A stretch of 64,000 bases of DNA from an uncultured Bacillota bacterium (GTDB taxonomy: Bacteria > Bacillota_I > Bacilli_A > RF39 > UBA660): contig CAMYZQ010000001.1 of assembly GCA_947303895.1 (NCBI GenBank), forward strand, positions 5,779 to 69,778. The letters run 5' to 3'. The notes beneath the pieces were generated by a model, which ran no database searches, was not told where the DNA came from, and worked only from the letters and a program-made list of their open reading frames with translations. The position numbers were made by a program, and so were the translations under genes. Below, in pieces: positions 14,949-39,734 of this stretch (position 1 is its first letter; each line of letters opens with the position of its first letter).

Positions 14949-15638
14949 ATGGCTATAAGTGTAAAAAGAAAATCAAATTTAGGAATACCAACCGAAAATT
15001 ATATAGTTTTACATCATTTGCCAGCAGACCACCCTGCTCACAAGCTCATAATACCTGTTGATCCAGACGCTATTTCTGATAGTATGGGGGCTTCGTTTGC
15101 TGAAAATACTCCTTTAAGTAGGAGTGCTCCTATCTATTCATATCAGCATTCTGGACCAAGAAGTGTGCAGGTAAGTTTTACACTGCATAGGGATTTATGT
15201 AGAGAGTATAATCCTGGTGTTGATGATATGGTAGATGCATTAGTAACAAATTTAGATGCTTTAGTGCTACCTGATTATGATTCTGCTAGTAAAATAGTAA
15301 ACCCACCTGTTGTTTCATTAAAAATAAGAGATGAAATTTACATAAAAGGTGTAGTTACAGGTAGTGTTGGTGTTACTTATAGTTTGCCAATAATAAATTA
15401 TGGTACAGCTGATAAAGCAATATATAAATATGCTGTTGTTTCTATATCGTTTGGTGTGAGCGAAATTACTCCATATAGTGCTAGTATTTTACCTGATGTT
15501 GGTGGTAAGTACAGAGCTACTGCAGGGTTCACAGCTACTCCAAGCAATAGTAGTAATACATCTTCATCTACAAATTATTCATCAGTGTCAAGTAATACTG
15601 GTGGCGGTGGTAGTGTTCTGAGAGGTATGTATGTATGA
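14949..15638 (+). CDS. hypothetical baseplate-region protein with a Ser/Thr-rich C-terminus
   Basis: ORF; C-terminal TATPSNSSNTSSSTNYSSVSSNTGGGGS. Confidence 0.4.
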   Translation: MAISVKRKSNLGIPTENYIVLHHLPADHPAHKLIIPVDPDAISDSMGASFAENTPLSRSAPIYSYQHSGPRSVQVSFTLHRDLCREYNPGVDDMVDALVTNLDALVLPDYDSASKIVNPPVVSLKIRDEIYIKGVVTGSVGVTYSLPIINYGTADKAIYKYAVVSISFGVSEITPYSASILPDVGGKYRATAGFTATPSNSSNTSSSTNYSSVSSNTGGGGSVLRGMYV

Positions 15639-15964
15639 ATGTATTAACAAATAGAGCAATTAAATCAAGTAAATATTATTCAAGATATAATGGATTATCT
15701 TACTATTATAATAATTTAGATGATAAATATCAGCTTGAAACAAGACATTGGTTAAAAGAATTTATAGATACATCTAAAATTCAAACATACATAGTTAAAG
15801 AAAAAGATACTTATGATACTATTGCATTAGAATTTTATAATAATCCTACTTATTATTGGGTGATATGCGACTATAATAGAATCATTGATCCGTTTACTTC
15901 TCCAAAAGTAGGTACAGTATTATATTTACCATCACTAAATGCTGGATTGGAATTTGAAAAATGA
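15635..15964 (+). CDS. LysM-like tail protein (P2 gpX / PBSX XkdP-like)
   Basis: YIVKEKDTYDTIALEFYNNPTYYWVICDYNRIIDPFTSPKVGTVLYLP matches the LysM pattern (Y.V..GDTL..IA..Y......I...N.I..P....G..L.iP); the position matches XkdP-type genes downstream of the TMP. Confidence 0.5.
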   Translation: MNVLTNRAIKSSKYYSRYNGLSYYYNNLDDKYQLETRHWLKEFIDTSKIQTYIVKEKDTYDTIALEFYNNPTYYWVICDYNRIIDPFTSPKVGTVLYLPSLNAGLEFEK

Positions 15965-16500
15965 GTTATGAACTAGATGATGATATGAGGGAATTTTTAA
16001 TAAGGCATAAAGCTGAACTACAAAGAAATGATTTAAATGCAGTTTATACTGATATTCTTGATGAGTTTGGTAATGTATATATGCCGGAATTTACTAAATT
16101 TTTCTTAAGTAAGTGTATAAACCCATTAAAATATTTTAGTAAAACAATTCCTCAGGCTTGTTTTTATGAAATACCTGATATTGGAGAAAGATTAGAAATA
16201 AAACCAGGTACAACTGATATAGGTTTTAGTGCTTTTTTAAAATGTAATTCTTTAAAAGAAGTTTCTTTTCCAAGTTCTTTAGAGTATATAGGTAATAAAG
16301 CTTTTTATAACTGTATGCATTTAGAAAAAGTTTATTTTAGGTCTGAACTAACAGGTATGGGTAGTAATGTATTTGGATATTGCCCAAGATTATCAGATAT
16401 TTATGTACCTTGGTCACAAGATAGTGATGCTGATATAGAATCATTAGCACTATTTGGTATATATCCAGATACAAAAATTCATTATAATTCACACAAGTAA
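15961..16500 (+). CDS. BspA-type leucine-rich-repeat protein
   Basis: IGFSAFLKCNSLKEVSFPSSLEYIGNKAFYNCMHLEKVYF fits the F..C..L..I.IP.S.IG..AF..C 'LRR_5' repeat. Confidence 0.45.
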   Translation: MSYELDDDMREFLIRHKAELQRNDLNAVYTDILDEFGNVYMPEFTKFFLSKCINPLKYFSKTIPQACFYEIPDIGERLEIKPGTTDIGFSAFLKCNSLKEVSFPSSLEYIGNKAFYNCMHLEKVYFRSELTGMGSNVFGYCPRLSDIYVPWSQDSDADIESLALFGIYPDTKIHYNSHK

Positions 16501-21685: not shown

Positions 21686-23907
21686 TGGCTGATAGAAAAC
21701 TTGAAAAACTTGAATATAGTAAAACAGTTAACTTACCTTCAGGTGATGGTTATACGCCACAATCTTTAGCTCTTGTTGATGCTAATAAGAGATATGTAAT
21801 ATGTTCAGGATCATCACCTAATATTGTATTGTTATGTAGTGCTAATTCATATTCAAGTTTGGGTAAGAAAATTGGGACTGGCCACGCTAATGGTGGAACA
21901 TATTGTAGTAAAAATGGCTGTATTTATACCACAGCTTATCATGGTAGCAGTAATAATAAAAAAATTGTAGTTACAAATGTATCAAATCTTAAAACAGCAT
22001 TTACAGTTAATTTAAAAACAAATGCTACAGGTATAGCGTATGATAGTGTAACTGATCAATTTTATGTTTCTGCTGGTTCAAAAATATATGTTTACCCATT
22101 TGATGCTTTATCAAAAGGTGGGGAAAGTGGCCCATATATTTCTTCATTTACAAAAAATTGGACGAGCGACAATAGAGATAATCAAGATGTTGGTGGCCAT
22201 AACGGCGTTGTTATGGTTTGTCGTTCTTTTGAAAAAACCAAAAAAGGTAAAGTTCAAAGAAGTTTTATTGATTGTTATAATGCAGCTAGTGGTGAATATT
22301 TAAAATCATATTATTCTGATTATGGAGAGTTAGAAAGTGTAGCTGTTGATGCTAGTGGAAATATGCATATCATATTTGCACAAGACAGAAAAATAGTTAA
22401 AACTACTAACATATTTAATCTTGTATGTGCTGAAGGTGCTGCAGCTACGGCTAATTCAATGGGGCTAGCTGTAAGCCCTGATAAACTATATAGTTCTGAT
22501 AATTATGAATATTTGACTCTGGATTTTAATGAAAGTGAATCTTCTATAAAATTCAGAAACGCTTTAAGAGATACTTTAAACAAATGGTCTGAAACAGGGT
22601 TTACACCTATACTTGATACAAAAGCTATTTCTGAAGCATTAACAACTTCTGGTGCCAATGATTCTTCAAGATTAAGAAAAACTAAAATTGAGGGTGAGGT
22701 ATTTGGTCCAGCTTTGCCTACTGCATTAAATCCAGTTGAAGCTCCATTTATAGAATTAACTATAGGTGAATATACATTTGGTGCATATGATAAATCTAAA
22801 AAATTTGATAGATATCCAAATTATATTGATAGTATGTCTATAGTTAAAACTAATGGTTCTATGAATGAATATACTATAAATTTGGTACATCAAGTAGCTC
22901 CTGGTAGCAACCCAAATTTTATAGATGAATTATTATCAAAAAATGGGTATGATAAAATCAGCATTAGATATGGAGATGCTAATAGTAATATAATTTTTAA
23001 TGATAATAATGCTCTTCTTATTGGAGTTAATGTTGGTTTTGATTTTGTAAATTGTAAAATAAATTATGTAATAAGGGCAACTAGCTCTGCTATTGCTATT
23101 GCTTCACATAAGAGAACATTTAGCAGTGTAGAAGATAAACCATCTAATATTATTAGAGATTTATTATATAATGATGCTAATGAGGACTTATTAAATGCAT
23201 TTCCTGCTATGCGTGATAGGAATTTTGTAGAGAAAAATAATTTAATTCCTAATGATGATATGGTAGTTAATGTAGAAGAATTTAAAAATGTAAATGTGGT
23301 TTCATATTTAAAAAATTTAGTTTCTATGATGAAGAGTATAACAAGTGATATTGTTGATTCTAACTACATATTAACTATAGAAGATGGTTATTTTAATATA
23401 AATGAAATTTCAACTAATTACATTTATGATTCTTCTTTATATGAAGTGAATATAAATTTCCCTGATGATAATCAAGTATTTAATTTTAATGTAAATACAA
23501 ATTATAGTTGGCCTATTGCCTATGAGTATGGTAGTGGTGTTTCAAATTATAATTATGAAATTACTAATCAGGGAGATTTAAAAAGGTTTAATACTAATTC
23601 TACTAATTTACTTGATTACTCCAGTCAAATGATGTCAAACATAAATTCTAACTGGTGGACTCAAGTAACAGAATTCCCAATTTCAGCTACCTTAACTTGC
23701 AGAGGTTTATTATCTCCGCTATTACTGTTGACATATATAAAAATTAATTGTATATATTATGGTAGTGATAGAATAAATAGTGGAATATATATTGTAACTG
23801 GACAAACAGATACTTTGAGTGGTTCAGGATTTCAAACAACATTGTCATTATTAAGAGTGGCAGGTGCAAAACAGCACTTAATAGTTGACGGGAGAGTAAG
23901 AACATGA
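21685..23907 (+). CDS. tail-associated paralog 3: N-terminal beta-rich (propeller-like?) domain + shared C-terminal domain
   Basis: The C-terminal ~460 aa are homologous to the two preceding ORFs; the N-terminal 250 aa are unrelated and rich in G/S/Y/V repeats; the ATG overlaps the upstream stop (TAATGG). Confidence 0.55.
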   Translation: MADRKLEKLEYSKTVNLPSGDGYTPQSLALVDANKRYVICSGSSPNIVLLCSANSYSSLGKKIGTGHANGGTYCSKNGCIYTTAYHGSSNNKKIVVTNVSNLKTAFTVNLKTNATGIAYDSVTDQFYVSAGSKIYVYPFDALSKGGESGPYISSFTKNWTSDNRDNQDVGGHNGVVMVCRSFEKTKKGKVQRSFIDCYNAASGEYLKSYYSDYGELESVAVDASGNMHIIFAQDRKIVKTTNIFNLVCAEGAAATANSMGLAVSPDKLYSSDNYEYLTLDFNESESSIKFRNALRDTLNKWSETGFTPILDTKAISEALTTSGANDSSRLRKTKIEGEVFGPALPTALNPVEAPFIELTIGEYTFGAYDKSKKFDRYPNYIDSMSIVKTNGSMNEYTINLVHQVAPGSNPNFIDELLSKNGYDKISIRYGDANSNIIFNDNNALLIGVNVGFDFVNCKINYVIRATSSAIAIASHKRTFSSVEDKPSNIIRDLLYNDANEDLLNAFPAMRDRNFVEKNNLIPNDDMVVNVEEFKNVNVVSYLKNLVSMMKSITSDIVDSNYILTIEDGYFNINEISTNYIYDSSLYEVNINFPDDNQVFNFNVNTNYSWPIAYEYGSGVSNYNYEITNQGDLKRFNTNSTNLLDYSSQMMSNINSNWWTQVTEFPISATLTCRGLLSPLLLLTYIKINCIYYGSDRINSGIYIVTGQTDTLSGSGFQTTLSLLRVAGAKQHLIVDGRVRT

Positions 23908-25055
23908 TACAAAAAGGTATAATTGAAGCTATTATATCTTCATATGAATATAAAGTAAGAATACCGAGGTATGATAAATTAATTACTACTCCTGGTGCTG
24001 TATCTACTGAAGATTTATCAAGTGCTATAGTATGTTCTATACCTAGTACTAAGGTTTCATTTGCAATAGGTGATATAGTTCTTATTGGATTTGAAAACGA
24101 AGAATTAAATAAACCAATAATATTAGGGCTTTTATATAGGCAAGGGCTCACAGATTCTGAACAATTTAGTGTTCCCTCTATACAAGAATTATTAGACAAA
24201 TTAGAGAATGAAATATCTGTATTAAGAGATAATAATTTATATACACATATAAAATATTCTAATGACAATGGTATAACATTTACATCTTTATATGAATATA
24301 CAGATGTAAATACAGTGTCAACCAGTCAAAATACATATAGAGGTGCTAGTGATATAATTATAGACCCAAACTCTACTGTGATATATTGGTCTGTTATTAA
24401 TTCTGAAGGTGTTGATGTTACTTCTACAATGAATATAACTACAATATTATCTACAGATGATAATTCAACATTAGTAGAAAGTTTTACAGAGCCTCTTATA
24501 AATATACCTTTAAAATTTAGAGGTTTAAATAATTTAAAATTGTCCTTTAGAATATTACAGGTAGTAGATTATGATAATTATCATATAGTTTTAACTACAG
24601 ATAAGAATACAATAGGCAGTGTATATGGAGATTATTTAGGTATTTGTGTTTCTACAGACCCAATTCCACCATTAACACCATCTTCCTACTCATGGTCATC
24701 ATTTTATAGAACAATTTATTATCTCGTAAATGAATTAGAAAATTCTTTATTACCTCGTATAGAGCGTAATGAAAAAGCTTTATATGGTTATACATACTCC
24801 GATGCCATTAGAGATACAGATAGTACTGGGTTGCTTGATGGAGTAAGGGTAGAAAAAGATGCCATTCACATACACGGATCGGAAAATAAGAGTGTTTATT
24901 TAAGTATTAACAATACTATGTTTATAGATAATAATGCTGATAATTTTACACTTAGAGATTTAGAATATACAAATGTATCTGCAGATTCTGTATTTTCAGA
25001 TTCATATAATGAAAAAGGACATTTAGCGTTGTCAAGAAGGAAAAGGGTTCGTTAA
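23904..25055 (+). CDS. baseplate spike protein (P2 gpV / VgrG-like OB-fold N-terminus with a C-terminal extension)
   Basis: YKVRIPRYD...SSAIVCSIPSTKVSFAIGDIVLIGFENEELNKPIILGLLY matches the gpV family pattern (..vrV.....s.W..v......G....P.vGdeVlv.F..Gd...P...G.ly). Confidence 0.55.
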   Translation: MIQKGIIEAIISSYEYKVRIPRYDKLITTPGAVSTEDLSSAIVCSIPSTKVSFAIGDIVLIGFENEELNKPIILGLLYRQGLTDSEQFSVPSIQELLDKLENEISVLRDNNLYTHIKYSNDNGITFTSLYEYTDVNTVSTSQNTYRGASDIIIDPNSTVIYWSVINSEGVDVTSTMNITTILSTDDNSTLVESFTEPLINIPLKFRGLNNLKLSFRILQVVDYDNYHIVLTTDKNTIGSVYGDYLGICVSTDPIPPLTPSSYSWSSFYRTIYYLVNELENSLLPRIERNEKALYGYTYSDAIRDTDSTGLLDGVRVEKDAIHIHGSENKSVYLSINNTMFIDNNADNFTLRDLEYTNVSADSVFSDSYNEKGHLALSRRKRVR

Positions 25056-25058
25056 TAA

Positions 25059-27191
25059 ATGGGTGCTTCCTTACATTTATCAGTATCAGAAAGTAATGTA
25101 GATTATAATGCTAATACTTCAGTAGTTACTGCTACATTGAAAATAACTGCTACAGGCTCAACTTGGAATGGCTATAAGCAAAGTGGTTATATTACAATAG
25201 ATGGCACTAAATATACTTTTTCAAGTTCTTTTGCTAAAGGTAAGACCACAACACTTGCTACAAAGTCTAAGACAGTAGCTCATAATGCTGATGGTACTAA
25301 AACAGTATCAGTAACTGGATATTATAAAACAGGTGTTTCTGCTGGTAATCTTTCCAAGAGCACAACTATAACATTAACTGCTATACCAAGATATTATTAT
25401 GTCTACTACAATACGAATGGTGGTGATGGTTATTTCCCAACACAGACAAAATACTATGGTAGTGGTTTAACTTTATACGGACACACACCTACTAGAACAG
25501 GCTATGATTTCTTATATTGGTCTGGCTATGGCGGGAATTATGCTCCTAGTGGTGTTTATCCATATGACACTTCCACTACCATGACAGCAGTTTGGGCTGA
25601 AAAGTCTGCTACATTAACATACTATAATAATGGTCATGGTACATTTCCTATACCAGGTAAAGGTACTACAAGTAGTGGCTCATCATATAGAGTAACCATG
25701 AGGTATTCAGCAGCTACTACGGCTATAAGTATGTCTGAAACAGGTTATACCTTCAATGGTTGGACTACTGGTCGTAGTGGTAGTGGTACACGATATAATG
25801 CTGGCGATGTTATTAAGCCAGTTAATCAAATACCTTCTGCACTCAGTTTATATGCACAATGGTCTGCAAATAAGTATACTATAGCATTTAATGGTAATGG
25901 TAATACAGAAGGTTCTCCACCTGAAGATATGGAAGCCACATATAATAGTGCATTTGTATTTCCTACAGCTCCACAAGATCTTAAAAAGACTGGATATGAG
26001 TTTAAAGGTTGGGCAACAACACCAGATGCTGGAGATCCTCAATATCTTGCAGGGGATTCTATAACTTGGAAAATTGCTTCAGGTATGACTTATTATGCCG
26101 TTTGGGGAGATATATTCATACCTATATACTATTATAGAAATACAGTAGAAAATGTTTTCGATAAAACAAATACATATTCTCTGTATTATTCTGATAGTGT
26201 ACATATTAATTATGATTATGAAATACCAAATATAGCATTACCAAATCTAGATAATTACACATTTTCAGGATATTGGTCATATGGAAAACCAAATGACATT
26301 ACATATACTGAATTTGGTATGACATTTCCTACTGGTGTAGTACCTCATAATTATGAAAAATATTTAGTAAATAAGGGGTTTTTAACAGCGGGGTCTACAA
26401 TAGAAAATGTAGAAGCTGATGTATATTTATATCCTATTTACATAGATAATACTCCAAGTGTTATATCAAAATTATATTCTTCATATGAATATGTACCAGA
26501 TGTAATTACACAGCAAGATTATTATTTATATCTTACCAACCAAGTTGCTTCTATACAAACATCAATTTCTGATGAAAATGTAGTTATGGCTACAAAATTT
26601 AGAACTTCTGCTGGTAATTATGGTGTAGCATTAGATGTTTCTAATATTTCTTATTCATTACAATCTGATGACACTACACCAATAGATATAAATTTAAATC
26701 CAGTATTATATAAATCAGATTATAATACTAATTTAAACACACAAGACTTTTATTTAATATTTAAAACAACAGGTCAGCCTGGTGGTATTCTTGTAGATTA
26801 CGCTACTACAAGTTATATATTAAATGTTTCTGGTATTAAAGATAGTTTTGGTAAAACCATAGAAGATGTACTATTAATTATATCACCACCTAAATTGGTA
26901 AGGGATATTAATTATAATGGAGATGCTATAGCTTTCTTTGATGAAGCACCAGATTATACAGATGAAGAAAAACTAATACATACAGAAGATGAATTATGGA
27001 TAAATGGTCTAGCTTTTTCTAATAATTTCTTACTACATGATGAACCAACAGATCCTGAAGAGACCTATGGTCCTTATGCTTTGCAATTATTAGATACTGG
27101 CAATATAACATCTGAAGAAATGGATAGTCTATATACAGTTGATAATATAGACCTTTCAAAATTGTTATTATTAATATTAAGCAAATTATAG
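25059..27191 (+). CDS. tail/baseplate protein with at least three Flg_new (Listeria-Bacteroides) repeats; candidate adhesin or receptor-binding protein
   Basis: Repeats PTRTGYDFLYWSG...MTAVWAEK / SETGYTFNGWTTG...LSLYAQWSANKYTI / KKTGYEFKGWATT...YYAVWGD fit t.tGY.F.GW.t.....y......i....tLYA.W. Confidence 0.6.
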   Translation: MGASLHLSVSESNVDYNANTSVVTATLKITATGSTWNGYKQSGYITIDGTKYTFSSSFAKGKTTTLATKSKTVAHNADGTKTVSVTGYYKTGVSAGNLSKSTTITLTAIPRYYYVYYNTNGGDGYFPTQTKYYGSGLTLYGHTPTRTGYDFLYWSGYGGNYAPSGVYPYDTSTTMTAVWAEKSATLTYYNNGHGTFPIPGKGTTSSGSSYRVTMRYSAATTAISMSETGYTFNGWTTGRSGSGTRYNAGDVIKPVNQIPSALSLYAQWSANKYTIAFNGNGNTEGSPPEDMEATYNSAFVFPTAPQDLKKTGYEFKGWATTPDAGDPQYLAGDSITWKIASGMTYYAVWGDIFIPIYYYRNTVENVFDKTNTYSLYYSDSVHINYDYEIPNIALPNLDNYTFSGYWSYGKPNDITYTEFGMTFPTGVVPHNYEKYLVNKGFLTAGSTIENVEADVYLYPIYIDNTPSVISKLYSSYEYVPDVITQQDYYLYLTNQVASIQTSISDENVVMATKFRTSAGNYGVALDVSNISYSLQSDDTTPIDINLNPVLYKSDYNTNLNTQDFYLIFKTTGQPGGILVDYATTSYILNVSGIKDSFGKTIEDVLLIISPPKLVRDINYNGDAIAFFDEAPDYTDEEKLIHTEDELWINGLAFSNNFLLHDEPTDPEETYGPYALQLLDTGNITSEEMDSLYTVDNIDLSKLLLLILSKL

Positions 27192-27326: not shown

Positions 27327-27701
27327 ATGTATTCACTTGCATTTCCAAATATGTTTAATGGTTCTACAGTAAATTTATATAAAGATTATGATGCTGTAAA
27401 AAGTAATCTAAGAAATTTATTGTATGCTAATAGGGGTGGATTATTTGGAGATCCACATTTTGGTACTAATATTAAACATATATTATTTGATCAAGCTGCT
27501 GATGATATTATGAAAGAGCTTGTAAAAGATGACATATATGAAGCTATATTATCTTATATGCCACAAACAACTATAGACAGAGACTATATAGACGTTTTTG
27601 TTCAAGATACTTTCGTGTCAGTTACAATTAAAGCTAAAAATGATTTAGGTGTTGTTTCTGATTTATTAAAGATAGAATTACTTAATACTGATGAAAATTA
27701 A
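27327..27701 (+). CDS. baseplate wedge protein gp25 / GPW family
   Basis: GGLFGDPHFGTNIKHILFDQAADDIMKELVKDDIYEAI matches the gp25/W signature (G.....P.FGs.l..l.F.p.......l...i..al); 124 aa; SD AGGGGAAA upstream. Confidence 0.65.
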   Translation: MYSLAFPNMFNGSTVNLYKDYDAVKSNLRNLLYANRGGLFGDPHFGTNIKHILFDQAADDIMKELVKDDIYEAILSYMPQTTIDRDYIDVFVQDTFVSVTIKAKNDLGVVSDLLKIELLNTDEN

Positions 27702-27713
27702 GGAATAAATTAA

Positions 27714-30700
27714 ATGGCACAAGACATTGTTAATGAAAATCAAAAAATTTCTTATACCAATTTAGATTTCTCTTCAATTTATACTGAAGTAATAGATTTA
27801 ATTAAGCAACTTACCTATAGATGGGATCCTTCCATATCAGATGAATCTGACCCAGGTGTTGTTTTAGTAAAACTATCTTCATTAATTGCAGATAAATGCA
27901 ACTATAATATTGATAAGAATATTTTAGAAACATTTCCACTTTCTGTTACTCAGAATGGTAATGCCAGACAACTGTATGATCAACTCGGTTACTATATGAA
28001 TTGGTATGAAAGTGCTTCTGTTCCAGTGTTATTGAGCTGGGTAGGAGAAACTAATGATAGTTCTGTATCTTATACTATACCTAAATTTACAGCAATAACA
28101 GATTCAGAATCAAGCCACATTTATTCTTTAATTGGTGCTGAAGGTACTGATGATGTAATAGTATCTGATACAATATTACCTGCTGATGGTAATGCAGTAA
28201 CAGTTATAGCAATGGAGGGTACTCCAGTTCAATATCAATTTGAAAATGAGACTGTTATTACTACTCAAATGGTAGATCCAATATCAAGAAGATTATATTT
28301 TCCACATTCTTATGTATCTCAAAATGGAGTATTTATAAAGAACACTAATCAGGAAAATTACGCTTCTTGGAAAAGAGTTAATAACTTATATGAAAATTCA
28401 TATAATGAATTAAGATATGTTTTTGGCTATGATAGTAATACTGATACTTGTTTTTTAGAATTTCCAGATAATTATTCAGAATTATTTGGAAGCGGCATTG
28501 AGATTACATATTTAGTAGTACCTCAAGAAACAACTAATATTCCAGCACAAGCATTAAATAGTTTCTTAGCACCTATTGCTGTAGGTGGAGATGCTGGCAT
28601 AGTTTTAGATTCAAGTAATGTTAAAATTGTTAATTATGTAGCTGCTTCAGGTCATAAAGATATTGAAAGTATAAATGATGCTTATATTAATTATAAGAGA
28701 ACAGTTGGTACTTTCAAGACATTAATTACATTAAGAGATTATTTAAATTATATTAGAAGCCAGGAGCTTGATATTTGTTCAAACGCCTTTGTATGTGATA
28801 GAACTAATGATATTCAGTCTACATACAAAATTATGAGCAGTAATCATGATTTGGACACAATAATTGTTAAAGTAGAACAATTATTAGATAAAACAACTTT
28901 AGAATCTACATTTGACTACAAGTTTGTAAAAACATCAGATATTAATATAAATCCTTCAAAGACATATTATACAATATCTAATAATAATACATTATCTGAA
29001 GTTACTACACCTGTGCTCAGTGATTTAAGTACTTACTATGAATTATCATCAGTAGAACCAAAATATGTAGATGCATTAAGTCCATTTTCTCTTAAGTTCT
29101 ATTTACTTAGAAAAGCTATAGCTTTAAATAGCAAAACAGCATATAATCAAACATTCTCTATGATGAAAACTTATCCAGAGTTTGATTCATTATTAGAGGG
29201 TACATCACATCTTGAGCATACATATGAAGATATTCTGCCTTTAGGTGAGAATACATATATTAAATCAAATGATGATATGTGGTATGATAACAAATCATAT
29301 TGGTTATATGATTCTGAAGAAGATATTTATGAGTTAATTTCTGATACTTCTGTATTTGATGGAACACCAGCTAGCCTATCAAATGTATATAATATTGATG
29401 TAGAGGCACTTCTCCCTCATACAGTAATGTTTAAAGGTGTATATCCAGTTACATTAAATATATCTACATATAATGTATTAGATGAAGATACACAAGCAGA
29501 TATTTCGAGTAATATTATTTCAAGCTTATATTCTAATGTGAATAGTTCACAAGTGGATTTTGGTTTACCAATTTCTATAGACTATTTAGTTGAAATTGCA
29601 AAAAATAGTGATGATAGAATTAAAAATGTTACTATAGATCCGATAGAATATTCTTTATTTGCTACATATTATGACAAGAATGAAGATATTTATGTAGATG
29701 TAGAACTTAACAGTGATACGGATTCATTAACTCCAGTATCGCAAAGAAGTATTTCAGATATTGTATCTGCATTAATGAAAAAAGACATCATATGTAAATC
29801 AATATTAGCTGGTACTACACAGTTATTAGTTCCAGATGATACCTTCATATATCATTTGAGCCAAAAATATTTAGATTACATTGATGGTATAAGTAATATT
29901 ACAGGTGAAGCTATAATAGATGTACAGAATGATTCTGTTACTTCATATTCATTAGATAATGAAGATTCATTTATAAGAAAAGCATATACATTAAAGGATA
30001 ATGAAGTAGTATCCATTTATAGACCAAAATTTAATGCTACAAAAACATTTCCAAATAATGTACATTTTGAATATGTATTATATAATGATATTACTGCTGA
30101 TTCTTCTTATAAATTAAATAGTAATGAATATTTCATATTATATAATCCAATAAAAGATGATGATGCTACAACTATTATTGGTTATACAGTTTATGCTTGT
30201 AGTGCTGGTGCAATAATTCACTCTACATTTGATATACCAAAACAAACATCTTTATCAGCATTATCTGGGTTTGCTAGAGCTAGAGTAGTAACTTATTTCT
30301 CAGTTAATCCTACAAAGAATTATTATGAATTATCCACTTATAATGAGAATTATAAGACGGAAATAAGAAATAGTTCTGCAATCATAAATAATGCAATATC
30401 TGGTACAAATGAGATTCAAATACAAGAAGTTTCAACTATAACACTTGATAGAGAAGATAAATATAAATTCTTCTGGATATTAAATGAACCAACATATTCA
30501 AACAATTCAAATTTAAAGTCATATACTTTATTTGATAATTTTGATAGTGTAAATGATAATAATTCTTCAGAAGTTATAAATACTTATACTTTAAGAAACG
30601 GTGAAGCATTGTTCTACACTAATGAGTCTGCTACAGATTTTGCTATGCTCGGCCCTGGTACAACACTTATCAGAAACTGTGGTGTTGAGTCTTCAATATA

Positions 30701-33700
30701 TACTGAGATTGAAAATTCAATCTATTATGTAGCTGTTGATGATATAGCACATATACTTATAGATGGTGAGTTCGAGTTCTTAACCGATGATAATAGTGAG
30801 ATAAGGCCTTTTGCTAATGGTTTATATGAAGTATCAAGTGCAGAATTACAAACATTAGAAAGTACTGATAATCCATTAGCGAAAAATTTATATGAACAAG
30901 TTGTTCATGATGATACAACCATATCATATATACCTACATTTAATACAGAACCAGAAGAGGGTGTAGATTATTACAAATTAACATTTATAAGAACTTTAGA
31001 CACATCATTAGTTTCTGGTAAATATTACTATGTACTAGTAATGAGAAAAGAGGCTGGATGGTATATAAAGAGTAGTGTAACTGATGATAATGGTATAGAT
31101 AGAGAAATCTATGTACCTGATGAGATTGAAACAGGTTGTTTTAAAGAAGTAAATCTATATGCAACTGCAGAATTACATAATCCTAAAGAGTTAGGTTTAT
31201 ATGAAATACTCACATCTAATAATAATAAATTTATAGATCAGTATGCTTTAAATAATAATGTTGCAGCTACAAAGCAAAATAGATATACTACTACAGAAGA
31301 TACATCAGTTATAAATAGAAATATTTTATCTGATACAAAATATTCTGGCATAAACTTAACTGATATAAGTACATATACTACAATAGATATGTCAGAAATG
31401 ATAACTTCAAGTCCTGAAACACTTGGGTTATTAACACCGGTGTATAAAAAATATTATACTACTGCTTCTCATACGGAGGAAGTGCCAGTAAGTTACTTAT
31501 CAAATCCTAATGCAGAAGGTTTATGGGCATATGAATATAATCCAATAACAGGAACTTATGAATATATGCTAACATCTGATACTACACCTAAAGTTGAATC
31601 TGTAAATAAATCACTTAGTGTAGAATTATTAAAAGAAAAAGATACACTGTTTACAAACAACTTAAATAATTCTGGCTATTATTATAAACCAAGCTCAATA
31701 AATTCTACATATTATTATAATAACAATTTAGGTTCAAAATTACCTACAACAGTATATAGTAATATATCAGGCTATAGCCCTTCATTCTTAGATGCTGGTA
31801 CAGTGTTAACAGAATATGAGGGTGCGTATAATAGATCACCATTATCATATTTATTCTATTGGTTTAGTAATACATCAGCACAGACAGAATCATCATTAGA
31901 TGAGTCTACTAAGAGATTAACACAAATTGCTGCAAATTGGGCAACAGCTATTTCCTACCAAAAACCATATATGGAAGTGCCTTTATGGGATTCTAATTCT
32001 GTATATAAATATGATGATGTTGTAGCTTACTCTCCGAGCAGTGAACAGGCAGCGCTATCATACAAATGCATTGTATCTCAGGCGTCAAGTACATGGAATT
32101 ATGATGAATGGGTTAGAGTTGATACCTCTTGGGCAACATTTAAGTTTAAGACACATACTGACCCACACACTATACCAAGTGATGATAATAATTCTTATCT
32201 CATAAGTAGTATAAGAGATGCTTCAGCTATACCAGAATGGAGTAGTGAAGAGACTTATGAATATGGTGATGTTGTACTATATACAATAGACACAGACACA
32301 AACGCTTATATGTGTATAGTTGATCAGGCATCAAGCACTTGGGATTCTGAAGAATGGAAAGAAATAGATACTTCTACTGATAATAAATATATCAAGGTAG
32401 CTGGTAACACTATAATTGATAAATCTATTATAGTAGGTAATATATATCCTATATTAGATGAGGGGCCAGATTCTACTGGAACTGGTGCATGGTTCTTTAT
32501 ACCAGCTGCTTATTTAACAAGTTATGCAGAAGCAGATTTAGTAGACCCAATAAATTACTATGTATTAGATGTTGATACTTCAGTAACTCCAAATGTACCT
32601 ATATTTACATATTTGGATAATGATCTAAAACTTTCAAGATTATTCCCTAATTCAAAAAATGATGTAAGTAATTATGGAACAGTACATATATTCTTTATAC
32701 CTAAGTTATATGAGTTTAATGATTTTGTAAGGTACACTTATAAAAATTATTATGAACCAAAAGTTTTGTATAACAGAAACTGCGGAGAGATAAAAGCTTG
32801 GACTTGTACAGCTTTAGATAATGATTATATTTATAAAGACCCAATTAAGAATATTGGAGATTTATGGACATCACTGCAGACAAATACTTCATTAACATTA
32901 ATAGAAAATGAAATTCAATCATTTTCTTCTGGAGATATGCTTATATTTGAAGCAGACGAAACTTCTGAAGCATATGTATCATGGCCAACATTTAGTAATA
33001 CTGAAACAATATTAGATTTAGATTCTTACAGAGTTTCATATCAAAGAGTTGGAGAAGATATTAAAGATATTGAAACTGTGGCTGTTGATGATTATAAATG
33101 GAGAGGCTATTCTTCATTAATGCTAAATACATCAAGTACAAGTGGCCAAAAATTAGAGTATAACCATACATTAAAACTATATGATAGTGATGTAGCTGAA
33201 GATCCTATAGCAACATTGGAGGGTAGTTCACACAATAACATAACTTTCCAATTAAAATACCCTGTTGAAAATAAAGTAGGTACATTTATAGATGTATCAA
33301 CAGTAGATATGCTAGGAGAGGATATTCTTAATAAACTATATGCATTTACTCCATTTGCAAATGGTTCATATTATGCATATGATACCAGTAATTACAAAAC
33401 ATATTTATATTTTAATCAAGATGAGAACGAGGGCAGTAATCCAACTACATATTCACCATCAACAATAGATTTACCTGTAGGTTTACCATCAGGAAATTAT
33501 TTACTTGGTATGAATATGAAAGATGACATAAACCTTACTGTAAATCTTATAAATATGCTTGAAGGTATTTCCTCAGGTGGTTCTGGTATTGGTTGTAATC
33601 TTGATGCGTCTGCAGTAGTTTCTAATATTGCATATGGTAATATGAAATACACATTTGATCCAAATTATAGTAATTATTTACATTCATATGTAGATACAAG

Positions 33701-34388
33701 CAGAACAGTGTTTACTGGAGATAAATATGATTATATTTACTTAAATGTAAGTAGTGAATATAATAAAATTAAATTACCTTCATTAGTATCATATTTATTT
33801 GGTAAGTCTCCATATGCACTTGGTTGGTATATCAAACTTGATAATGATTATATTAAATGTGATTCAAGTTATACTTCAGTAGGTTCAAGCTTACTTGAAG
33901 CAATACCATTTAATGAAGATACTAGATCATTATCACCAGTCGAAGAAGGTTGGTATGAATATATACTTGATAATGGTTATTGGTTCTATGAGTTATCTAC
34001 AGATGCTGTTATGGCAGACGCTAATACAAAAACATATTATAAAGAACCAGATTTATATGTGAGTATTTCAGATGTAAATTCATATTTAAGATTTACAATA
34101 GATGATAATAAAGCACCTAGAACCTATACAATTTTAGATGTATTCAAGTATAATCAAAATCCAGCATTTGGTAGTGAATTTGATACTGTGCTAGAAAAGA
34201 TTAAAGCTTTAGATACTGATGAGCAATTTAATTATATGTTTAAGCCATCAGCTAATGATTTAATTGAAAATCCATTAGATCCTAAATCATTCTGGAATTC
34301 AAATCATGTATATAACAGTTTCATTATACCACAATTAAATTTCGATGAACTTAATTGTAGATATATCACAACTAAAATGAATAGGTAA
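27714..34388 (+). CDS. giant (2224 aa) baseplate J (gp6/gpJ)-like protein fused to a long distal region carrying CBM5/12-like carbohydrate-binding repeats
   Basis: The N-terminus YTNLDFSSIYTEVIDLIKQLTYRWDPSISDESDPGVVLVKLSSLIADKCNYNIDKNILETFPLSVTQNGNARQLYDQLGY matches the Baseplate_J family; internal repeats YKYDDVVAYSPSS..YKCIVSQASSTWNYDEWVRV and YEYGDVVLYTIDTDTNAYMCIVDQASSTWDSEEWKEI fit W....Y..GD.V.Y.G..Y.C......W....W. Confidence 0.7.
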   Translation: MAQDIVNENQKISYTNLDFSSIYTEVIDLIKQLTYRWDPSISDESDPGVVLVKLSSLIADKCNYNIDKNILETFPLSVTQNGNARQLYDQLGYYMNWYESASVPVLLSWVGETNDSSVSYTIPKFTAITDSESSHIYSLIGAEGTDDVIVSDTILPADGNAVTVIAMEGTPVQYQFENETVITTQMVDPISRRLYFPHSYVSQNGVFIKNTNQENYASWKRVNNLYENSYNELRYVFGYDSNTDTCFLEFPDNYSELFGSGIEITYLVVPQETTNIPAQALNSFLAPIAVGGDAGIVLDSSNVKIVNYVAASGHKDIESINDAYINYKRTVGTFKTLITLRDYLNYIRSQELDICSNAFVCDRTNDIQSTYKIMSSNHDLDTIIVKVEQLLDKTTLESTFDYKFVKTSDININPSKTYYTISNNNTLSEVTTPVLSDLSTYYELSSVEPKYVDALSPFSLKFYLLRKAIALNSKTAYNQTFSMMKTYPEFDSLLEGTSHLEHTYEDILPLGENTYIKSNDDMWYDNKSYWLYDSEEDIYELISDTSVFDGTPASLSNVYNIDVEALLPHTVMFKGVYPVTLNISTYNVLDEDTQADISSNIISSLYSNVNSSQVDFGLPISIDYLVEIAKNSDDRIKNVTIDPIEYSLFATYYDKNEDIYVDVELNSDTDSLTPVSQRSISDIVSALMKKDIICKSILAGTTQLLVPDDTFIYHLSQKYLDYIDGISNITGEAIIDVQNDSVTSYSLDNEDSFIRKAYTLKDNEVVSIYRPKFNATKTFPNNVHFEYVLYNDITADSSYKLNSNEYFILYNPIKDDDATTIIGYTVYACSAGAIIHSTFDIPKQTSLSALSGFARARVVTYFSVNPTKNYYELSTYNENYKTEIRNSSAIINNAISGTNEIQIQEVSTITLDREDKYKFFWILNEPTYSNNSNLKSYTLFDNFDSVNDNNSSEVINTYTLRNGEALFYTNESATDFAMLGPGTTLIRNCGVESSIYTEIENSIYYVAVDDIAHILIDGEFEFLTDDNSEIRPFANGLYEVSSAELQTLESTDNPLAKNLYEQVVHDDTTISYIPTFNTEPEEGVDYYKLTFIRTLDTSLVSGKYYYVLVMRKEAGWYIKSSVTDDNGIDREIYVPDEIETGCFKEVNLYATAELHNPKELGLYEILTSNNNKFIDQYALNNNVAATKQNRYTTTEDTSVINRNILSDTKYSGINLTDISTYTTIDMSEMITSSPETLGLLTPVYKKYYTTASHTEEVPVSYLSNPNAEGLWAYEYNPITGTYEYMLTSDTTPKVESVNKSLSVELLKEKDTLFTNNLNNSGYYYKPSSINSTYYYNNNLGSKLPTTVYSNISGYSPSFLDAGTVLTEYEGAYNRSPLSYLFYWFSNTSAQTESSLDESTKRLTQIAANWATAISYQKPYMEVPLWDSNSVYKYDDVVAYSPSSEQAALSYKCIVSQASSTWNYDEWVRVDTSWATFKFKTHTDPHTIPSDDNNSYLISSIRDASAIPEWSSEETYEYGDVVLYTIDTDTNAYMCIVDQASSTWDSEEWKEIDTSTDNKYIKVAGNTIIDKSIIVGNIYPILDEGPDSTGTGAWFFIPAAYLTSYAEADLVDPINYYVLDVDTSVTPNVPIFTYLDNDLKLSRLFPNSKNDVSNYGTVHIFFIPKLYEFNDFVRYTYKNYYEPKVLYNRNCGEIKAWTCTALDNDYIYKDPIKNIGDLWTSLQTNTSLTLIENEIQSFSSGDMLIFEADETSEAYVSWPTFSNTETILDLDSYRVSYQRVGEDIKDIETVAVDDYKWRGYSSLMLNTSSTSGQKLEYNHTLKLYDSDVAEDPIATLEGSSHNNITFQLKYPVENKVGTFIDVSTVDMLGEDILNKLYAFTPFANGSYYAYDTSNYKTYLYFNQDENEGSNPTTYSPSTIDLPVGLPSGNYLLGMNMKDDINLTVNLINMLEGISSGGSGIGCNLDASAVVSNIAYGNMKYTFDPNYSNYLHSYVDTSRTVFTGDKYDYIYLNVSSEYNKIKLPSLVSYLFGKSPYALGWYIKLDNDYIKCDSSYTSVGSSLLEAIPFNEDTRSLSPVEEGWYEYILDNGYWFYELSTDAVMADANTKTYYKEPDLYVSISDVNSYLRFTIDDNKAPRTYTILDVFKYNQNPAFGSEFDTVLEKIKALDTDEQFNYMFKPSANDLIENPLDPKSFWNSNHVYNSFIIPQLNFDELNCRYITTKMNR

Positions 34389-34398
34389 GGACAAAATA

Positions 34399-35412
34399 AT
34401 GATTCGTTATCAAGAAATGGTGCCTGATTTTTACATAGAAGCTAGTAGAGATTTTCAAGTTCTATGCAGAATGTATGATTTTGCTATGAATAGCTTAAAA
34501 TACAATATAGATTCTATGCAAAATTTGACAGACACAAGAAACATAAAAGATACAGTTCTACCCCTATTAGGAGATAAACTTGGCATTTATGATAAAGAAG
34601 CTTATTCTAATAGGCAGTTATTAGAAGCTTTACCTATTGCATTAAAATACAAAGGGTCTTTAAAGAGTGTTAATATTTTATTAAATGCATTTTTAGATTC
34701 TATGGATGTCTTTGAAAACGCTGTGGCTCTTCATTCTAAAGATGAAGAGTCTGCAGCTGAGATATCTGCAATACTAAACAGACCAATTGGACCTTATTCA
34801 ATAGTTATAATTTTATCAACATTTCCAAGTTTAACAAATCTTCATACTTTAGATGAATACTTGGATATGGTTATACCATCAGGGTTAATTGTAGAGTATG
34901 CATTTGGTGTTCCAAAAGATTACTTTGATAGGTTTAAATATAAAGAATATACATTCTTATTTTATACACATAATAATTCATATAGTACAGGTATTTCAGC
35001 ACCTTATATTAGTATGGTAAAAGGCAATTCGGATAAATATAGTGCAGTATTTAATTATGCAGGCACAGATAATATTTCAACAAGAAAAGAATTTGTAGGT
35101 GATACACCAGGTACTGTGCCATATACATTAAAACATGATGTTGTTCCAATACCACCTTCTACAAATGTTGATGTATATCAAATAGATGTAGATTCTACCA
35201 CAGGTGTTGAAACAAGAGTTAAATTAGAGTATATGTCAAGTGGCATTTATAATATAACTATACCTGATAATTGTATTACATATGTAGAATATTCTTATAA
35301 TAAAACAAAAGAATTTATTGATAAAGTCATTTCAGATATTGATGTAAATGCAGTTAGCTTAGCTACTGTTATGAGTAGAGATCAGTTCCATGAGGTAAAT
35401 GTAAATGAATAA
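34399..35412 (+). CDS. baseplate protein, P2 gpI-like
   Basis: The N-terminal QEMVPDFY...TVLPLLGDKLGI resembles the tail protein I family (LP....LAe.LG); it sits in the W-J-I gene order. Confidence 0.5.
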   Translation: MIRYQEMVPDFYIEASRDFQVLCRMYDFAMNSLKYNIDSMQNLTDTRNIKDTVLPLLGDKLGIYDKEAYSNRQLLEALPIALKYKGSLKSVNILLNAFLDSMDVFENAVALHSKDEESAAEISAILNRPIGPYSIVIILSTFPSLTNLHTLDEYLDMVIPSGLIVEYAFGVPKDYFDRFKYKEYTFLFYTHNNSYSTGISAPYISMVKGNSDKYSAVFNYAGTDNISTRKEFVGDTPGTVPYTLKHDVVPIPPSTNVDVYQIDVDSTTGVETRVKLEYMSSGIYNITIPDNCITYVEYSYNKTKEFIDKVISDIDVNAVSLATVMSRDQFHEVNVNE

Positions 35413-35989
35413 AGATGTAAATGTTTACAGAGGTAAAGTAAAAATTGCTTTTAAAAAGGGTAAGAACATACTAAAACAAACCACACATAATACTGGTCTA
35501 TCAGATATGTCATTATTATTTGTTAAGGCTATTACAGGTAACTTGGATTATTCTGTGGATATACCTAGATTAATAGATATTGGATATATGGTGCCAAGTG
35601 CTACAAATGAAGATTATTCCTATAGCAATGGTATCTGGATGTCTATTTTAAATGAACCAGCTAATATTGGTGGTAGACAGTATAAATATGATACAGAGTT
35701 AGAAAATTGGCTAGGTGTGCTTGTATCAACTGTTTATTATTCTGATTTAAATGGTGGTATATTGGATAATGTTTTATCACAAGCTGATGAAGGTTATATA
35801 AATTTAAAAGTTAGGTTATGCTCATATGAACCTAAAAATAGAAAATATTTTGCTGAAATAGATATTACTCCAGCTGAAATAAGAGAAATACGCGATTCTA
35901 CTTCTGCAATATTTTCTTGGTATACAGAATTACTATATGCAGAAGAAGGTTCTTCAGATAGTGTTTCATCTAATATTGTTGTTCAGTAA
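35405..35989 (+). CDS. hypothetical tail fibre or baseplate accessory protein
   Basis: ORF; overlaps the previous gene by 8 nt. Confidence 0.4.
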   Translation: MNKDVNVYRGKVKIAFKKGKNILKQTTHNTGLSDMSLLFVKAITGNLDYSVDIPRLIDIGYMVPSATNEDYSYSNGIWMSILNEPANIGGRQYKYDTELENWLGVLVSTVYYSDLNGGILDNVLSQADEGYINLKVRLCSYEPKNRKYFAEIDITPAEIREIRDSTSAIFSWYTELLYAEEGSSDSVSSNIVVQ

Positions 35990-36001: not shown

Positions 36002-36610
36002 ATGTCATATAGATTAAATACAGATAACATTAATAGTTTCCCATCTACTAAACGAGCTTCTGTTAATAAGTTAATGACAGAAAACAGTGTAACTAGATTA
36101 ATAAATCGTCTTGTAGATGTAGATGGATTTGTAATAACTACAGGTTTAACTGATGTAGATTTTACACAAGATCTCTCTATAGATGTTTGGCATAATAATC
36201 TTGCAGATTTTGAGTTTGTAATTAGAGGTTATTATTTCTCCATATCAAGAGGAAGTAGTATATCAGGCTTAGATTATCTTTTAACTACTACTCAGTTTAA
36301 TTTTTCCGATGAAGAAGAACATACATTATTTGCTGGCATTTTCATAGATAAGACATATCCAGAGTTTCCAGAGTTATATGGACAGGAAGATATACAAGGA
36401 GAATATCAAGCTATAATTTTCTACACCAGTGATGAAGAAAAACCTGACCCACCATCTGGATTAACAGAATATGATTTTTATGAGTTCCCTTTAGTTAAAT
36501 ATATGCAAAAAGATGATGGTTCTTGGGGTAGATTTGTACCTTTAGATTCATTATTTAAGTTCTCATCAATATCAATTTCTAATATAGATGGTGGAGAAAT
36601 TTCTCTATAA
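36002..36610 (+). CDS. hypothetical tail fibre or baseplate accessory protein
   Basis: The last ORF of the structural module before a strong terminator. Confidence 0.4.
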   Translation: MSYRLNTDNINSFPSTKRASVNKLMTENSVTRLINRLVDVDGFVITTGLTDVDFTQDLSIDVWHNNLADFEFVIRGYYFSISRGSSISGLDYLLTTTQFNFSDEEEHTLFAGIFIDKTYPEFPELYGQEDIQGEYQAIIFYTSDEEKPDPPSGLTEYDFYEFPLVKYMQKDDGSWGRFVPLDSLFKFSSISISNIDGGEISL

Positions 36611-38681: not shown

Positions 38682-39734
38682 ATGGAACCGAATTTTGATT
38701 TTGATAAATGTGCTGAATTAACTAAAAATGGAAAATGGTTTTCACAATTATTGTATGATAGGGCTTATGATATAATAAAAGATGATTGTTTCCCTATAGT
38801 TATACCATCATATAATAGGCCAAAAAATAAGCTTTTAAGAATGTTTAAAAATAATAATATTGATAATTATAATTTTCAAGCTTATTATTTGGTTAGGGAA
38901 TCTCAGAAAGAAGAGTATGAAGCAGAAGTAGTTAATATAAAAAATGTACATATTATTACTGCACCTGATGATTTAATAAATGGTGCAGGTAAAGCTCGAA
39001 TAGAAATTATTAAAAGATTTAACGGAAATATATTTTTATTTGATGATGATATTCAGCAAGTTTGTTTTACTACACCTACATATACTCCAAAAGGTGGTTG
39101 CAGATTTGGTACTAAATATAATCCTACAGATTTATTTAAAATATTATCTATGTGGCAGCTAACTTATATGGTTGTAAAAGAAAAATATCCAGAAATAGTT
39201 GGTAGTAATCTACCTTGCACAGCTCATACTTGGCCAGTAACACCAAATCATCTACCACAATATTCAGTAGAGTTTAATAGGGGCCCATTTGCAGTATTAA
39301 CTATATGCGATGTAGATAAACTTAAAGAAAATAATTTAACATATAGAGATAATTCTTTTGGTCATGAGGATTTGGATTTACAATTCAGGTGCTTAATGGC
39401 AGGGTTAAAATTTATTAGAATTAATTTTATAGGTTATGTGGCAGATCCCCCTAATCCAGAGTTTAATGGGGATAAGTCTGCTTCTGCAATGGAACGATAT
39501 GAAAAGCAATATAATCAAATGCTACCATATTTCAAAGATGTGCCTTGGATAAAAACAAGAGAGCAAAAGGGATTAAAAATGCTAGCTGTTGATTACAGAA
39601 AATATTCTGAATGTATGGGTGCTGACCCTAAAATAAATCCTGTAAAATTATTGCAAGAAAAATATCCTATTTTCAATGATATAGAAACAGTTGAATTGTA
39701 TGGAAAAACTAAACATAAATTAGATCTTTTTTAA
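38682..39734 (+). CDS. GT-A-fold (family-2-like) glycosyltransferase-like protein, paralog of 50935..51795
   Basis: The N-terminal FPIVIPSYNRPKN (h-h-h-h-P-(S/T)-YNR motif) and FLFDDD (DxD-like); the same arrangement as in ORF 50935 (FAIFILSHGRPDE ... AEFEDDYL). Confidence 0.4.
   Translation: MEPNFDFDKCAELTKNGKWFSQLLYDRAYDIIKDDCFPIVIPSYNRPKNKLLRMFKNNNIDNYNFQAYYLVRESQKEEYEAEVVNIKNVHIITAPDDLINGAGKARIEIIKRFNGNIFLFDDDIQQVCFTTPTYTPKGGCRFGTKYNPTDLFKILSMWQLTYMVVKEKYPEIVGSNLPCTAHTWPVTPNHLPQYSVEFNRGPFAVLTICDVDKLKENNLTYRDNSFGHEDLDLQFRCLMAGLKFIRINFIGYVADPPNPEFNGDKSASAMERYEKQYNQMLPYFKDVPWIKTREQKGLKMLAVDYRKYSECMGADPKINPVKLLQEKYPIFNDIETVELYGKTKHKLDLF

Follow-up and report, generated by a model that had tools for sequence, protein, structure and literature searches.

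In a 64,000-nucleotide (nt) stretch of contig CAMYZQ010000001.1 (assembly GCA_947303895.1), referred to below as the window and carrying tail genes of an uncultured phage, a single open reading frame (ORF) on the + strand runs from an ATG start at 27714 to 34388 (27714..34388) and encodes 2224 amino acids (aa) plus a stop codon, as read from the ORF list and the translation. We refer to its product as the giant. Our analysis points to a subunit of the gp6/J type (baseplate wedge 2, BW2), a component of the wedge ring of a contractile tail, which probably builds the baseplate periphery itself and carries accessory modules predicted to bind glycans. Contractile-tail baseplates share a conserved wedge core. 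In the solved baseplates host binding falls to separate proteins or to extensions of the third wedge subunit (BW3), whereas the family of the giant would represent a BW2 enlarged three- to six-fold and, if this is true, another way of coupling host recognition to the contraction trigger.

The reading frame and its N-terminal core

An earlier reading of the window made from the letters alone (the sequence-only reading) had placed the ORF at exactly this position and length, and we found it accompanied by an AAGGA ribosome-binding site 8 nt 5' of the start and by tight spacing to its neighbours: 12 nt separate its start from the stop of a gp25-like gene, and 10 nt lie between its own stop and the following gene. 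The encoded protein is rich in Tyr, Asn, Ser and Thr, with Tyr alone accounting for 8.3%. A homologue search covering 5.8 billion protein clusters yielded 517 homologues of the giant, and the best 120 of these are all between 1233 and 2754 aa long. The family is known only from gut and rumen metagenomes, with more than 500 clusters at 90% identity. An orthologue of 2225 aa (P0001) that is 96% identical occurs with identical gene order in two independent samples (ENA ERZ27252073 and SRR8442993), and further colinear full-length homologues were found at 84, 69, 62, 61, 49 and 45% identity. These findings, together with the even guanine-plus-cytosine (GC) content along the ORF (0.28-0.30), speak against an assembly or frameshift artefact fusing two genes, which the sequence-only reading had raised as a formal possibility and for which we found no supporting point. 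Because more than 100 colinear homologues of 1233-2754 aa lie on independent contigs, an assembly join is excluded at the level of sequence comparison, the probability that we leave to an artefact is practically nil, and a large metagenome-only family conserves the long reading frame.

Family databases gave no indication of what the N-terminus might be. Pfam returned no match in the whole giant at E<=0.1 and none in aa 1-500 at E<=10, the gathering score of PF04865 (Baseplate_J) was not reached, NCBIfam gave no match, and PDB sequences yielded nothing in either a single-sequence search or a search with the full-length family profile; Pfam-based annotation overlooks this J family altogether. 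Because the Pfam and PDB-sequence searches find nothing, assignment to the gp6/J class needs profile-profile or fold comparison. When cultured phages were searched by tblastn, the giant was matched over aa 7-343 only, by the "baseplate J" protein of Bacillus phage vB_BceM-HSE3 (27% identity, E=8e-9) and, as the second match, by the wedge protein of a Streptococcus phage. In these two cultured phages, the ones with detectable similarity, J measures 483 and 488 aa, and no record among 50,697 phage genomes matches the giant past aa 347. The sequence-only reading had called the arrangement unusual, and we agree, as no comparable giant J was found among the cultured phages searched. At the profile level, hhalign aligned aa 11-345 of the giant's family with aa 7-320 of HSE3 gp082 (98.7%, E=4.6e-16); gp082 itself passes Pfam PF04865 at E=1e-14, and its gene comes after a gp25 gene. 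The region of homology to Baseplate_J proteins delimited by hhalign and tblastn is thus aa 11-345 (27744..28748, +).

Fold comparison led to the same class. For that, an AlphaFold2 model of aa 1-1050 with a predicted local distance difference test score (pLDDT) of 69 was searched against PDB using Foldseek. All 13 matches at E<1e-3 were gp6/J-class wedge subunits of solved baseplates (Klebsiella KP1, P1, T4 gp6, phi812, the Streptomyces contractile injection system and cyanophage A-1(L)), with T4 gp6 matched at E=3.9e-8 across 977 alignment columns, and AFP, Bas63, phiCD508, Mu and TssF followed at weaker E-values. We conclude from the profile-profile and fold comparisons that the N-terminus of the giant is of the gp6/J class. 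The sequence-only reading had described it as unmistakably gp6/gpJ; the class holds on the strength of hhalign and Foldseek, whereas "unmistakable" does not suit a protein in which Pfam finds nothing.

To describe the layout of the protein we mapped 120 homologues onto the giant and calculated sliding identity among eight colinear homologues. The coverage map and the Foldseek alignments define a family-wide core of aa 1 to ~1000 (27714..30713, +), which is present in all members, including short forms of 1233-1564 aa. Its first 100 residues, the N-terminal helices (27714..28013, +), are the most conserved segment, with 88-100% identity (about 93%) even in relatives that are ~45% identical overall; they are predicted to be helical and have low pLDDT as a monomer. 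In the baseplates of T4, Milano and phage 812, a (BW2)2-BW3 core bundle is formed between subunits (PMC10811340, PMC13433997). By analogy, we infer that aa 1-100 would form this core-bundle interface, and their low confidence in a monomer model fits, because such helices are expected in an inter-subunit bundle. Within the J core we also observed two variable islands, aa 101-150 (nt 28014-28163) and aa 401-450 (nt 28914-29063), at 43-63% identity. They may be surface loops of the wedge, together with a site at ~aa 573 where short forms carry an inserted carbohydrate-binding module (CBM; see below).

We also considered that the giant might be the single-copy BW3 (gp7/arm-scaffold) subunit, in which case its long extension would be conventional, as in 812 gp117. 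gp6 and gp7 share the N-terminal helices and a trifurcation domain (PMC13433997), known Gram-positive-infecting myophages carry a long peripheral extension on BW3, and our homology tests yielded no separate BW3 in this phage. However, the homology of the giant is to a Pfam-verified Baseplate_J protein and covers the first 320 residues of that J protein, the HSE3 homologue is J and not the adjacent Tail_P2_I protein, and the chains recovered by Foldseek are, by their length (T4 634-658 aa, phi812 347 aa), gp6 and the phi812 wedge protein rather than gp7 or the arm scaffold. Moreover, the giant lies directly after gp25, which is the position of J in HSE3. We regard a BW3 identity as very unlikely.

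The extension, its conserved end and the movable modules

Beyond the core follows a variable beta-rich extension (aa ~1001-1650; 30714..32663, +), which has the lowest conservation and is missing from short-form relatives; the most variable part of the giant, aa 1250-1650 with only 30-37% identity, is therein and thus internal. A distal beta-rich block (aa 1651-1950; 32664..33563, +) with 57-65% identity is conserved in forms longer than ~1700 aa and gave no significant fold match. The protein ends in a family-conserved C-terminal module of 85 aa (aa 2139-2224; 34128..34385, +) with the motif LD.D..YNYT..DLI.[DN]PL.P.SF..NH.YN.FTI.QLD. This module is found in 108 of the 120 homologues, belongs to the most conserved parts of the giant and has low pLDDT as a monomer; neither PDB nor a conventional J protein (HSE3 J) yielded a detectable relative of it. 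The shortest family members (1233 aa) consist of the core and the C-terminal module. As judged from these alignments, the pattern of the giant differs from the classical one of a conserved N-terminal anchor and a variable C-terminal tip.

In a model of aa 1041-2224 (pLDDT 78 overall and ~80-90 over aa 1041-1480) the extension is a chain of globular domains, rich in beta structure and with short helices, and no significant PDB match was obtained, to a fibre, spike, beta-helix or coiled coil or otherwise. In BFVD the best match (E=3e-10), and the sole significant one of high probability, is to a metagenomic "baseplate wedge protein", namely to its second half, and the giant's family is therefore already in UniProt, unrecognised. 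An exhaustive HMMER scan with aa 1041-2224 over 1.84 billion representative proteins gave 95 matches, among them no clearly stand-alone homologue of the extension; its body was found only in family proteins of 1.7-2.7 thousand residues or in short pieces. A homologue search of its own for the C-terminal 665 aa, narrowed by a candidate-word filter, gave no more than 4 proteins.

These results bear on the proposal of the sequence-only reading that a J wedge gene had been fused end to end with a formerly separate gene for a receptor-binding tail fibre. Such a fusion would be in keeping with a long extension that bears lectin-type modules behind a J-class N-terminus, with the lack of another large fibre-like gene 3' of the giant ahead of the replication module, and with a 684-aa gene call (P0244) that is homologous to the C-terminal 610 aa. 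P0244, however, begins 505 nt from the end of its contig and has unrelated sequence upstream, which makes it unusable as a stand-alone C-terminal gene, and the small matches of the exhaustive scan are colinear family fragments. Furthermore, the modelled extension is globular and without a significant fibre or spike match, the 1233-aa members retain the core together with the C-terminal module, the C-terminus of the giant is conserved while its variable part is internal, and gp6-type subunits occur as pairs and not as trimers (PMC10811340). Sequence comparison and modelling thus provide no evidence for an ancestor that was a separate fibre gene and no fibre-like fold, and we consider the fusion quite unlikely. 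Of the idea that wedge and fibre are combined in one chain, the J-class N-terminus with a CBM-bearing extension stands and the fibre does not; the fold modelling that the sequence-only reading had suggested as a check likewise returned the gp6/J class for the N-terminus and no fibre for the remainder.

Two further ideas on the origin of the distal part were rejected. In the exhaustive scan, the C-terminal module was found to end proteins of 340-780 aa, which prompted the idea that it is the C-terminal domain of an ordinary J and that the giant is a J with an internal insertion. None of the proteins sharing the last ~90 residues carries Baseplate_J, and because most of them match the giant colinearly at several points we take them to be truncated gene calls. 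The motif NP..G[LW]YE followed by K.YY recurs in aa 1036-1300 and 2037-2110, but an internal duplication of aa 1020-1300 and aa 2020-2140 was not upheld (z=1-4, under the maximum shuffle score), and the recurrence probably reflects the Tyr/Asn/Ser/Thr-rich composition.

We located both repeat peptides quoted in the sequence-only reading, copy 1 at aa 1431-1469 (nt 32004-32120) and copy 2 at aa 1515-1551 (nt 32256-32366). Their similarity goes beyond chance: the local alignment score of copy 1 against copy 2 is 135, compared with 28.7 +/- 5.6 and a maximum of 58 in 2000 shuffles (z=19). A tandem repeat at the DNA level was not found for the pair. As domains, copy 1 spans aa 1425-1474 (31986..32135, +; pLDDT ~93) and copy 2 spans aa 1509-1556 (32238..32381, +; pLDDT ~64), and the sole Pfam match of each copy scanned alone is CBM_5_12, at sub-threshold E-values of 0.064 and 0.049, respectively. 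An iterated hidden Markov model run over the homologues picked up one or two copies of the module in each of 44 out of 121 proteins, and we built a profile (A1) from 40 module copies, compared with most of which copy 1 of the giant has a loop insertion of 7-8 residues. The position of the module varies among relatives (~573, 816, 1066, 1430, 1510, 1650 and 1722); at ~aa 573 it is an insertion into the core of short-form relatives, and P0244 has it inserted at a point that falls between residues 1820 and 1821 of the query. Only the protein in the window, P0001 and P0002, which form the closest clade, possess copy 2, and six other full-length homologues show 97% gap at this site.

When compared with solved structures, profile A1 matched 3wx7, a Vibrio chitin oligosaccharide deacetylase, at both of its CBM12 domains (E=9.8e-10), 1ed7, the chitin-binding domain of Bacillus circulans ChiA1 (E=1.3e-7), and other chitinase CBM5 domains, as well as 4tx8 (E=0.002) and 2rts (E=0.0037). 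Taken singly, 32 of the 40 family copies match PF02839 at E<=1, the best at E=6.6e-7. The A1 alignment shows no variation at Y10 and W45 and at least 90% conservation of Y29 and C31; these residues probably correspond to the core Tyr/Trp pair described for CBM5/12 domains (PMC8449059). With CBM12/CBM5 domains such as 1ED7 and 3WX7 the modules share the pattern Y..GD.V.Y.G..YKC...W and probably the core Tyr and Trp, and they resemble the CBM12 type (YKC...W), without the 'WW' pair of CBM5; in contrast to those domains they are divergent, sit in a virion protein and not in a glycoside hydrolase, and include the loop insertion of copy 1. Based on alignment offsets and the 1ED7 sequence, W1461 and W1543 presumably align with W687 of ChiA1, a tryptophan that contacts chitin and is pivotal for its binding. 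The comparison through the family profile supports the two copies of the giant as divergent members of the CBM5/12 superfamily. The CBM5/12 assignment of the sequence-only reading is thus borne out at the level of the family profile (3wx7, 1ed7), and not by the giant's own copies, which stay below the Pfam threshold.

Other domains are inserted in some relatives: P0064, P0072 and P0073 (2721-2754 aa) carry a PF03382 (DUF285) insert, and P0257, a fragment of this family, carries Big_2 Ig-like domains. Because some relatives insert such adhesin-type domains, the extension appears, from sequence comparison, to be a platform for exchanging surface-binding modules.

A proposed role at the baseplate periphery

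Considering these data together, we favour the explanation that the giant is a gp6/J-type ring subunit which itself builds the periphery of the baseplate and bears accessory modules for glycan binding. By analogy with known baseplates, two copies per wedge, or 12 per baseplate, would form the iris ring via the conserved N-terminal helices and core, and the extension would project outward to form the periphery. In 812, A511 and Vp4 this job is done by the BW3/arm-scaffold subunit together with separate tripod and receptor-binding proteins. As its variability and domain type suggest, the region aa 1250-1650 with its movable CBM5/12 modules may contact host cell-wall glycans, such that low-affinity, multivalent adsorption would help to position the baseplate; the simplest guess for the putative ligand is a polymer containing N-acetylglucosamine on a thick-walled host. 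For the conserved C-terminal module, the probable function is to fold back and dock on a conserved baseplate partner, possibly one of the three proteins encoded directly downstream (p337, p194 and p202; see below). Exposure and host contact are supported by the difference between ~93% identity in aa 1-100 and 30-37% in aa 1250-1650, by the varying copy number and position of the module and by the Big_2 and DUF285 inserts of some relatives, and the myovirus context by genes for a sheath, a LysM/gp53-like and a hub-like protein in the window. The region aa 1250-1650 and the CBM modules offer a handle for host-range prediction in an abundant group of uncultured phages.

Several points weigh against this explanation. 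The N-terminal model has modest confidence, as given above, its TM-scores are low (0.17-0.35), and matching was not domain by domain. The giant's own copies of the module score 13.7 and 14.1 bits against a PF02839 gathering score of 26.2, and their link to CBM5/12 is transitive, because the repeat pair alone matches no solved CBM in PDB. BW3 was not found in homology tests of the neighbouring proteins, the stoichiometry of two per wedge and the outward projection are drawn by analogy, and the giant may be cleaved post-translationally into two proteins. Finally, the CBM-like modules could be structural, and profile A1 weakly matches the modules by which phage spikes and fibres bind the tail with their N-terminal part (8fqc gp124, 9rkv and 9x3r; E=0.005-0.09).

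This last point leads to the main rival, in which the CBM5/12-like modules have a structural task as adaptor or docking domains, as in tailspike N-termini, and hold the DUF859/Flg_new protein described below or the three downstream proteins, and receptor binding takes place elsewhere. The profile matches cover aa 77-118 of Milano gp124, aa 27-65 of the 7-7-1 fibre and aa 47-96 of a long-tail-fibre proximal subunit, and Foldseek aligned the repeat pair over ~140 columns with 8fqc_P1 (prob 0.91) and 9rkv_O; the matched part of the Milano tailspike consists of small globular domains, and this N-terminal module has been described as a tail-binding or attachment module (PMC10811340). The DUF859 protein, with its Listeria-Bacteroides repeats, is moreover a separate candidate adhesin (25059-27191). 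On the other hand, the profile matches most strongly CBM12/CBM5 domains whose chitin binding has been characterised by experiment (E=1e-9 to 1e-7), and its matches to phage fibres are weak. Because the module moves, varies in number and sits in the most variable region, a fixed docking role, for which a constant site would be expected, is argued against. In addition, in our own alignment W1461 and W1543 presumably keep the tryptophan at the chitin-contacting position of ChiA1. We therefore see the adaptor role as possible, yet of lower probability than glycan binding.

A bolder form of the glycan-binding explanation would make BW2 the primary host-recognition device of the phage: its twelve giant arms would be fitted with exchangeable modules for glycan binding, the C-terminus would act as a latch on the core or on the co-conserved small proteins, and binding in the mid-region would be passed on within one chain to iris opening and sheath contraction, without separate fibre or tripod proteins. 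We regard this form as doubtful. As regards the sequence-only reading as a whole, its observations (the ORF and the repeats) were correct, and its interpretation is supported in part.

Comparison with known baseplates places the giant more precisely. It shares with T4 gp6, P2 gpJ, Mu gp47, the 812 wedge protein and HSE3 gp082 N-terminal homology with a gp6-like fold, conserved N-terminal helices and the gene slot directly after the gp25-like sheath initiator. It differs in size: 2224 aa, compared with ~348 aa in 812 and Deep-Blue/Vp4, 483-488 aa in HSE3 and GXN1 and 660 aa in T4, so that to the usual gp6/J ring protein of 350-660 aa it adds ~1200 aa with CBM modules and a family-specific C-terminal module. 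The closest functional analogues are Vp4 Gp119 and the arm scaffold 812 gp117, wedge subunits from myophages of Gram-positive hosts that form the periphery of the baseplate with their C-terminal parts; Gp119 offers a precedent for CBMs on a wedge protein. In phage 812 the remaining part of this scaffold is an arm that carries tripods and receptor-binding proteins (PMC13433997), and in the Bacillus phages Deep-Blue and Vp4, in which BW2 has 348 aa, Gp119 (BW3) has CBM folds and binds cells (PMC11406892). Both analogues, however, are BW3 (gp7-like, one per wedge), whereas the giant carries its extension as a BW2 (by analogy, two per wedge); Vp4 has CBM folds of the CBM16/22 beta-sandwich type, and the modules of the giant are CBM5/12-like; and no sequence or fold similarity of the giant to Vp4 Gp119 or 812 gp117 was detected by tblastn or by Foldseek of the extension. 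In earlier-studied baseplates receptor-binding proteins are attached to BW3, and Milano is unusual in also using the C-terminal domain of BW2 (PMC10811340). Milano BW2 (gp29) thus illustrates that C-terminal domains of a normal-sized BW2 can serve to attach receptor-binding proteins, which in Milano are separate trimers, whereas the extra domains of the giant lie within the BW2 chain. The same strategy, an essential structural tail-tip protein enlarged by CBMs, is seen in the 'evolved' Dit and long Tal proteins of Gram-positive siphophages, including the 2170-aa Tal of Oenococcus phage Vinitor162 with five CBMs (PMC8540738); Dit and Tal belong to other protein families, of non-contractile tails, and carry other CBM families than the giant. 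Enlargement of tail proteins by CBMs is therefore well known in Gram-positive phages, and it is its placement on a ring-forming subunit, and at such a size, that has not been described before. The giant is, in this light, an unusual but understandable variant of a known baseplate part.

Genome context and neighbouring genes

The window belongs to a low-GC uncultured phage of gut or rumen origin, with a GC content of 23-35%, positive GC skew throughout and no tRNA genes. Among ORFs with 100 aa or more, almost every one lies on the + strand, and the few - strand ORFs overlap + strand genes and look spurious. A tail sheath gene (5599-7632) marks a contractile tail, its product being ~25% identical to that of any cultured phage, and it is followed by genes for a LysM/gp53-like "glue" protein (15635-15964) and a weak hub/VgrG-like protein (23904-25055). 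Immediately upstream of the giant lies the gene for a gp25-like sheath initiator (BW1) of 124 aa (27327..27701, +), matched by phrog_261 at E=3.6e-11 and, below threshold, by Pfam GPW_gp25 at E=0.002; the order gp25-giant is also found in HSE3 and in seven related loci.

Downstream of the giant are p337 (337 aa; 34399..35412, +) and two conserved proteins that gave no family matches, p194 (194 aa; 35405-35989, +) and p202 (202 aa; 36002-36610, +). The block gp25-giant-p337-p194-p202 is kept down to ~34% identity, and the synteny of p194/p202 down to ~27-30%. p337 has 148 homologues with a conserved N-terminal 215 aa and always lies directly 3' of the giant, which makes it a candidate BW3 by position only. 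As a BW3 or P2-gpI-type partner it was rejected, leaving the conserved adjacency: phmmer and profile searches against PDB, Pfam (21 members) and NCBIfam gave no similarity, and hhalign was negative against both HSE3 Tail_P2_I and the giant's own N-terminus.

Two large tail proteins on the + strand, a CHAP plus tail lysozyme (Phage_lysozyme2) protein at 16500-18980 and an NlpC/P60 protein at 18983-21685, together contain three peptidoglycan-hydrolase domains and for this reason suggest a thick-peptidoglycan host. Family members were also seen on phage-sized contigs of 117-151 kb (L005-L009, P0126 and P0241; yak rumen, goat ileum and faecal samples) that are binned in Acholeplasmatales, Lachnospiraceae and Methanobrevibacter metagenome-assembled genomes, and fragments of the family are binned in one of Romboutsia. 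These bins are probably composition-driven mis-binning of low-GC phage genomes, and because binning is composition-driven they are weak evidence on the host. A 300,943-bp scaffold (L004; ENA ERZ28653761 scaffold_50), which is either a jumbo phage or a misassembly, encodes a short-form member of 1468 aa in the same gene block, with a T4_baseplate (PF12322) gene nearby.

Between the hub-like and gp25-like genes, 25059-27191 (+) encodes a 710-aa protein that combines an N-terminus of the DUF859 'siphovirus tail protein' type with repeats of the Listeria-Bacteroides (Flg_new) kind; its orthologue in the phage of P0001 is 92% identical, and this protein is another candidate for an adhesin or receptor-binding protein in the baseplate. 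The 179-aa product of 15961-16500 (+), which lies in the tail module beside the LysM/gp53-like gene, contains BspA-type leucine-rich repeats (LRR_5, E=1.5e-19) and may be an additional adhesion element. At the start of the structural module, the 167-aa product of 819-1322 (+) contains a DUF5018 Ig-like domain (E=3.8e-15) and may be a capsid or tail decoration protein. Finally, the 350-aa product of 38682-39734 (+) matches Pfam TAGT (TET-associated glycosyltransferase) above the cutoff at E=7.8e-9 and, in PHROG, 'beta-glucosyl-HMC-alpha-glucosyltransferase'; these matches suggest that the phage glycosylates a hypermodified DNA base.

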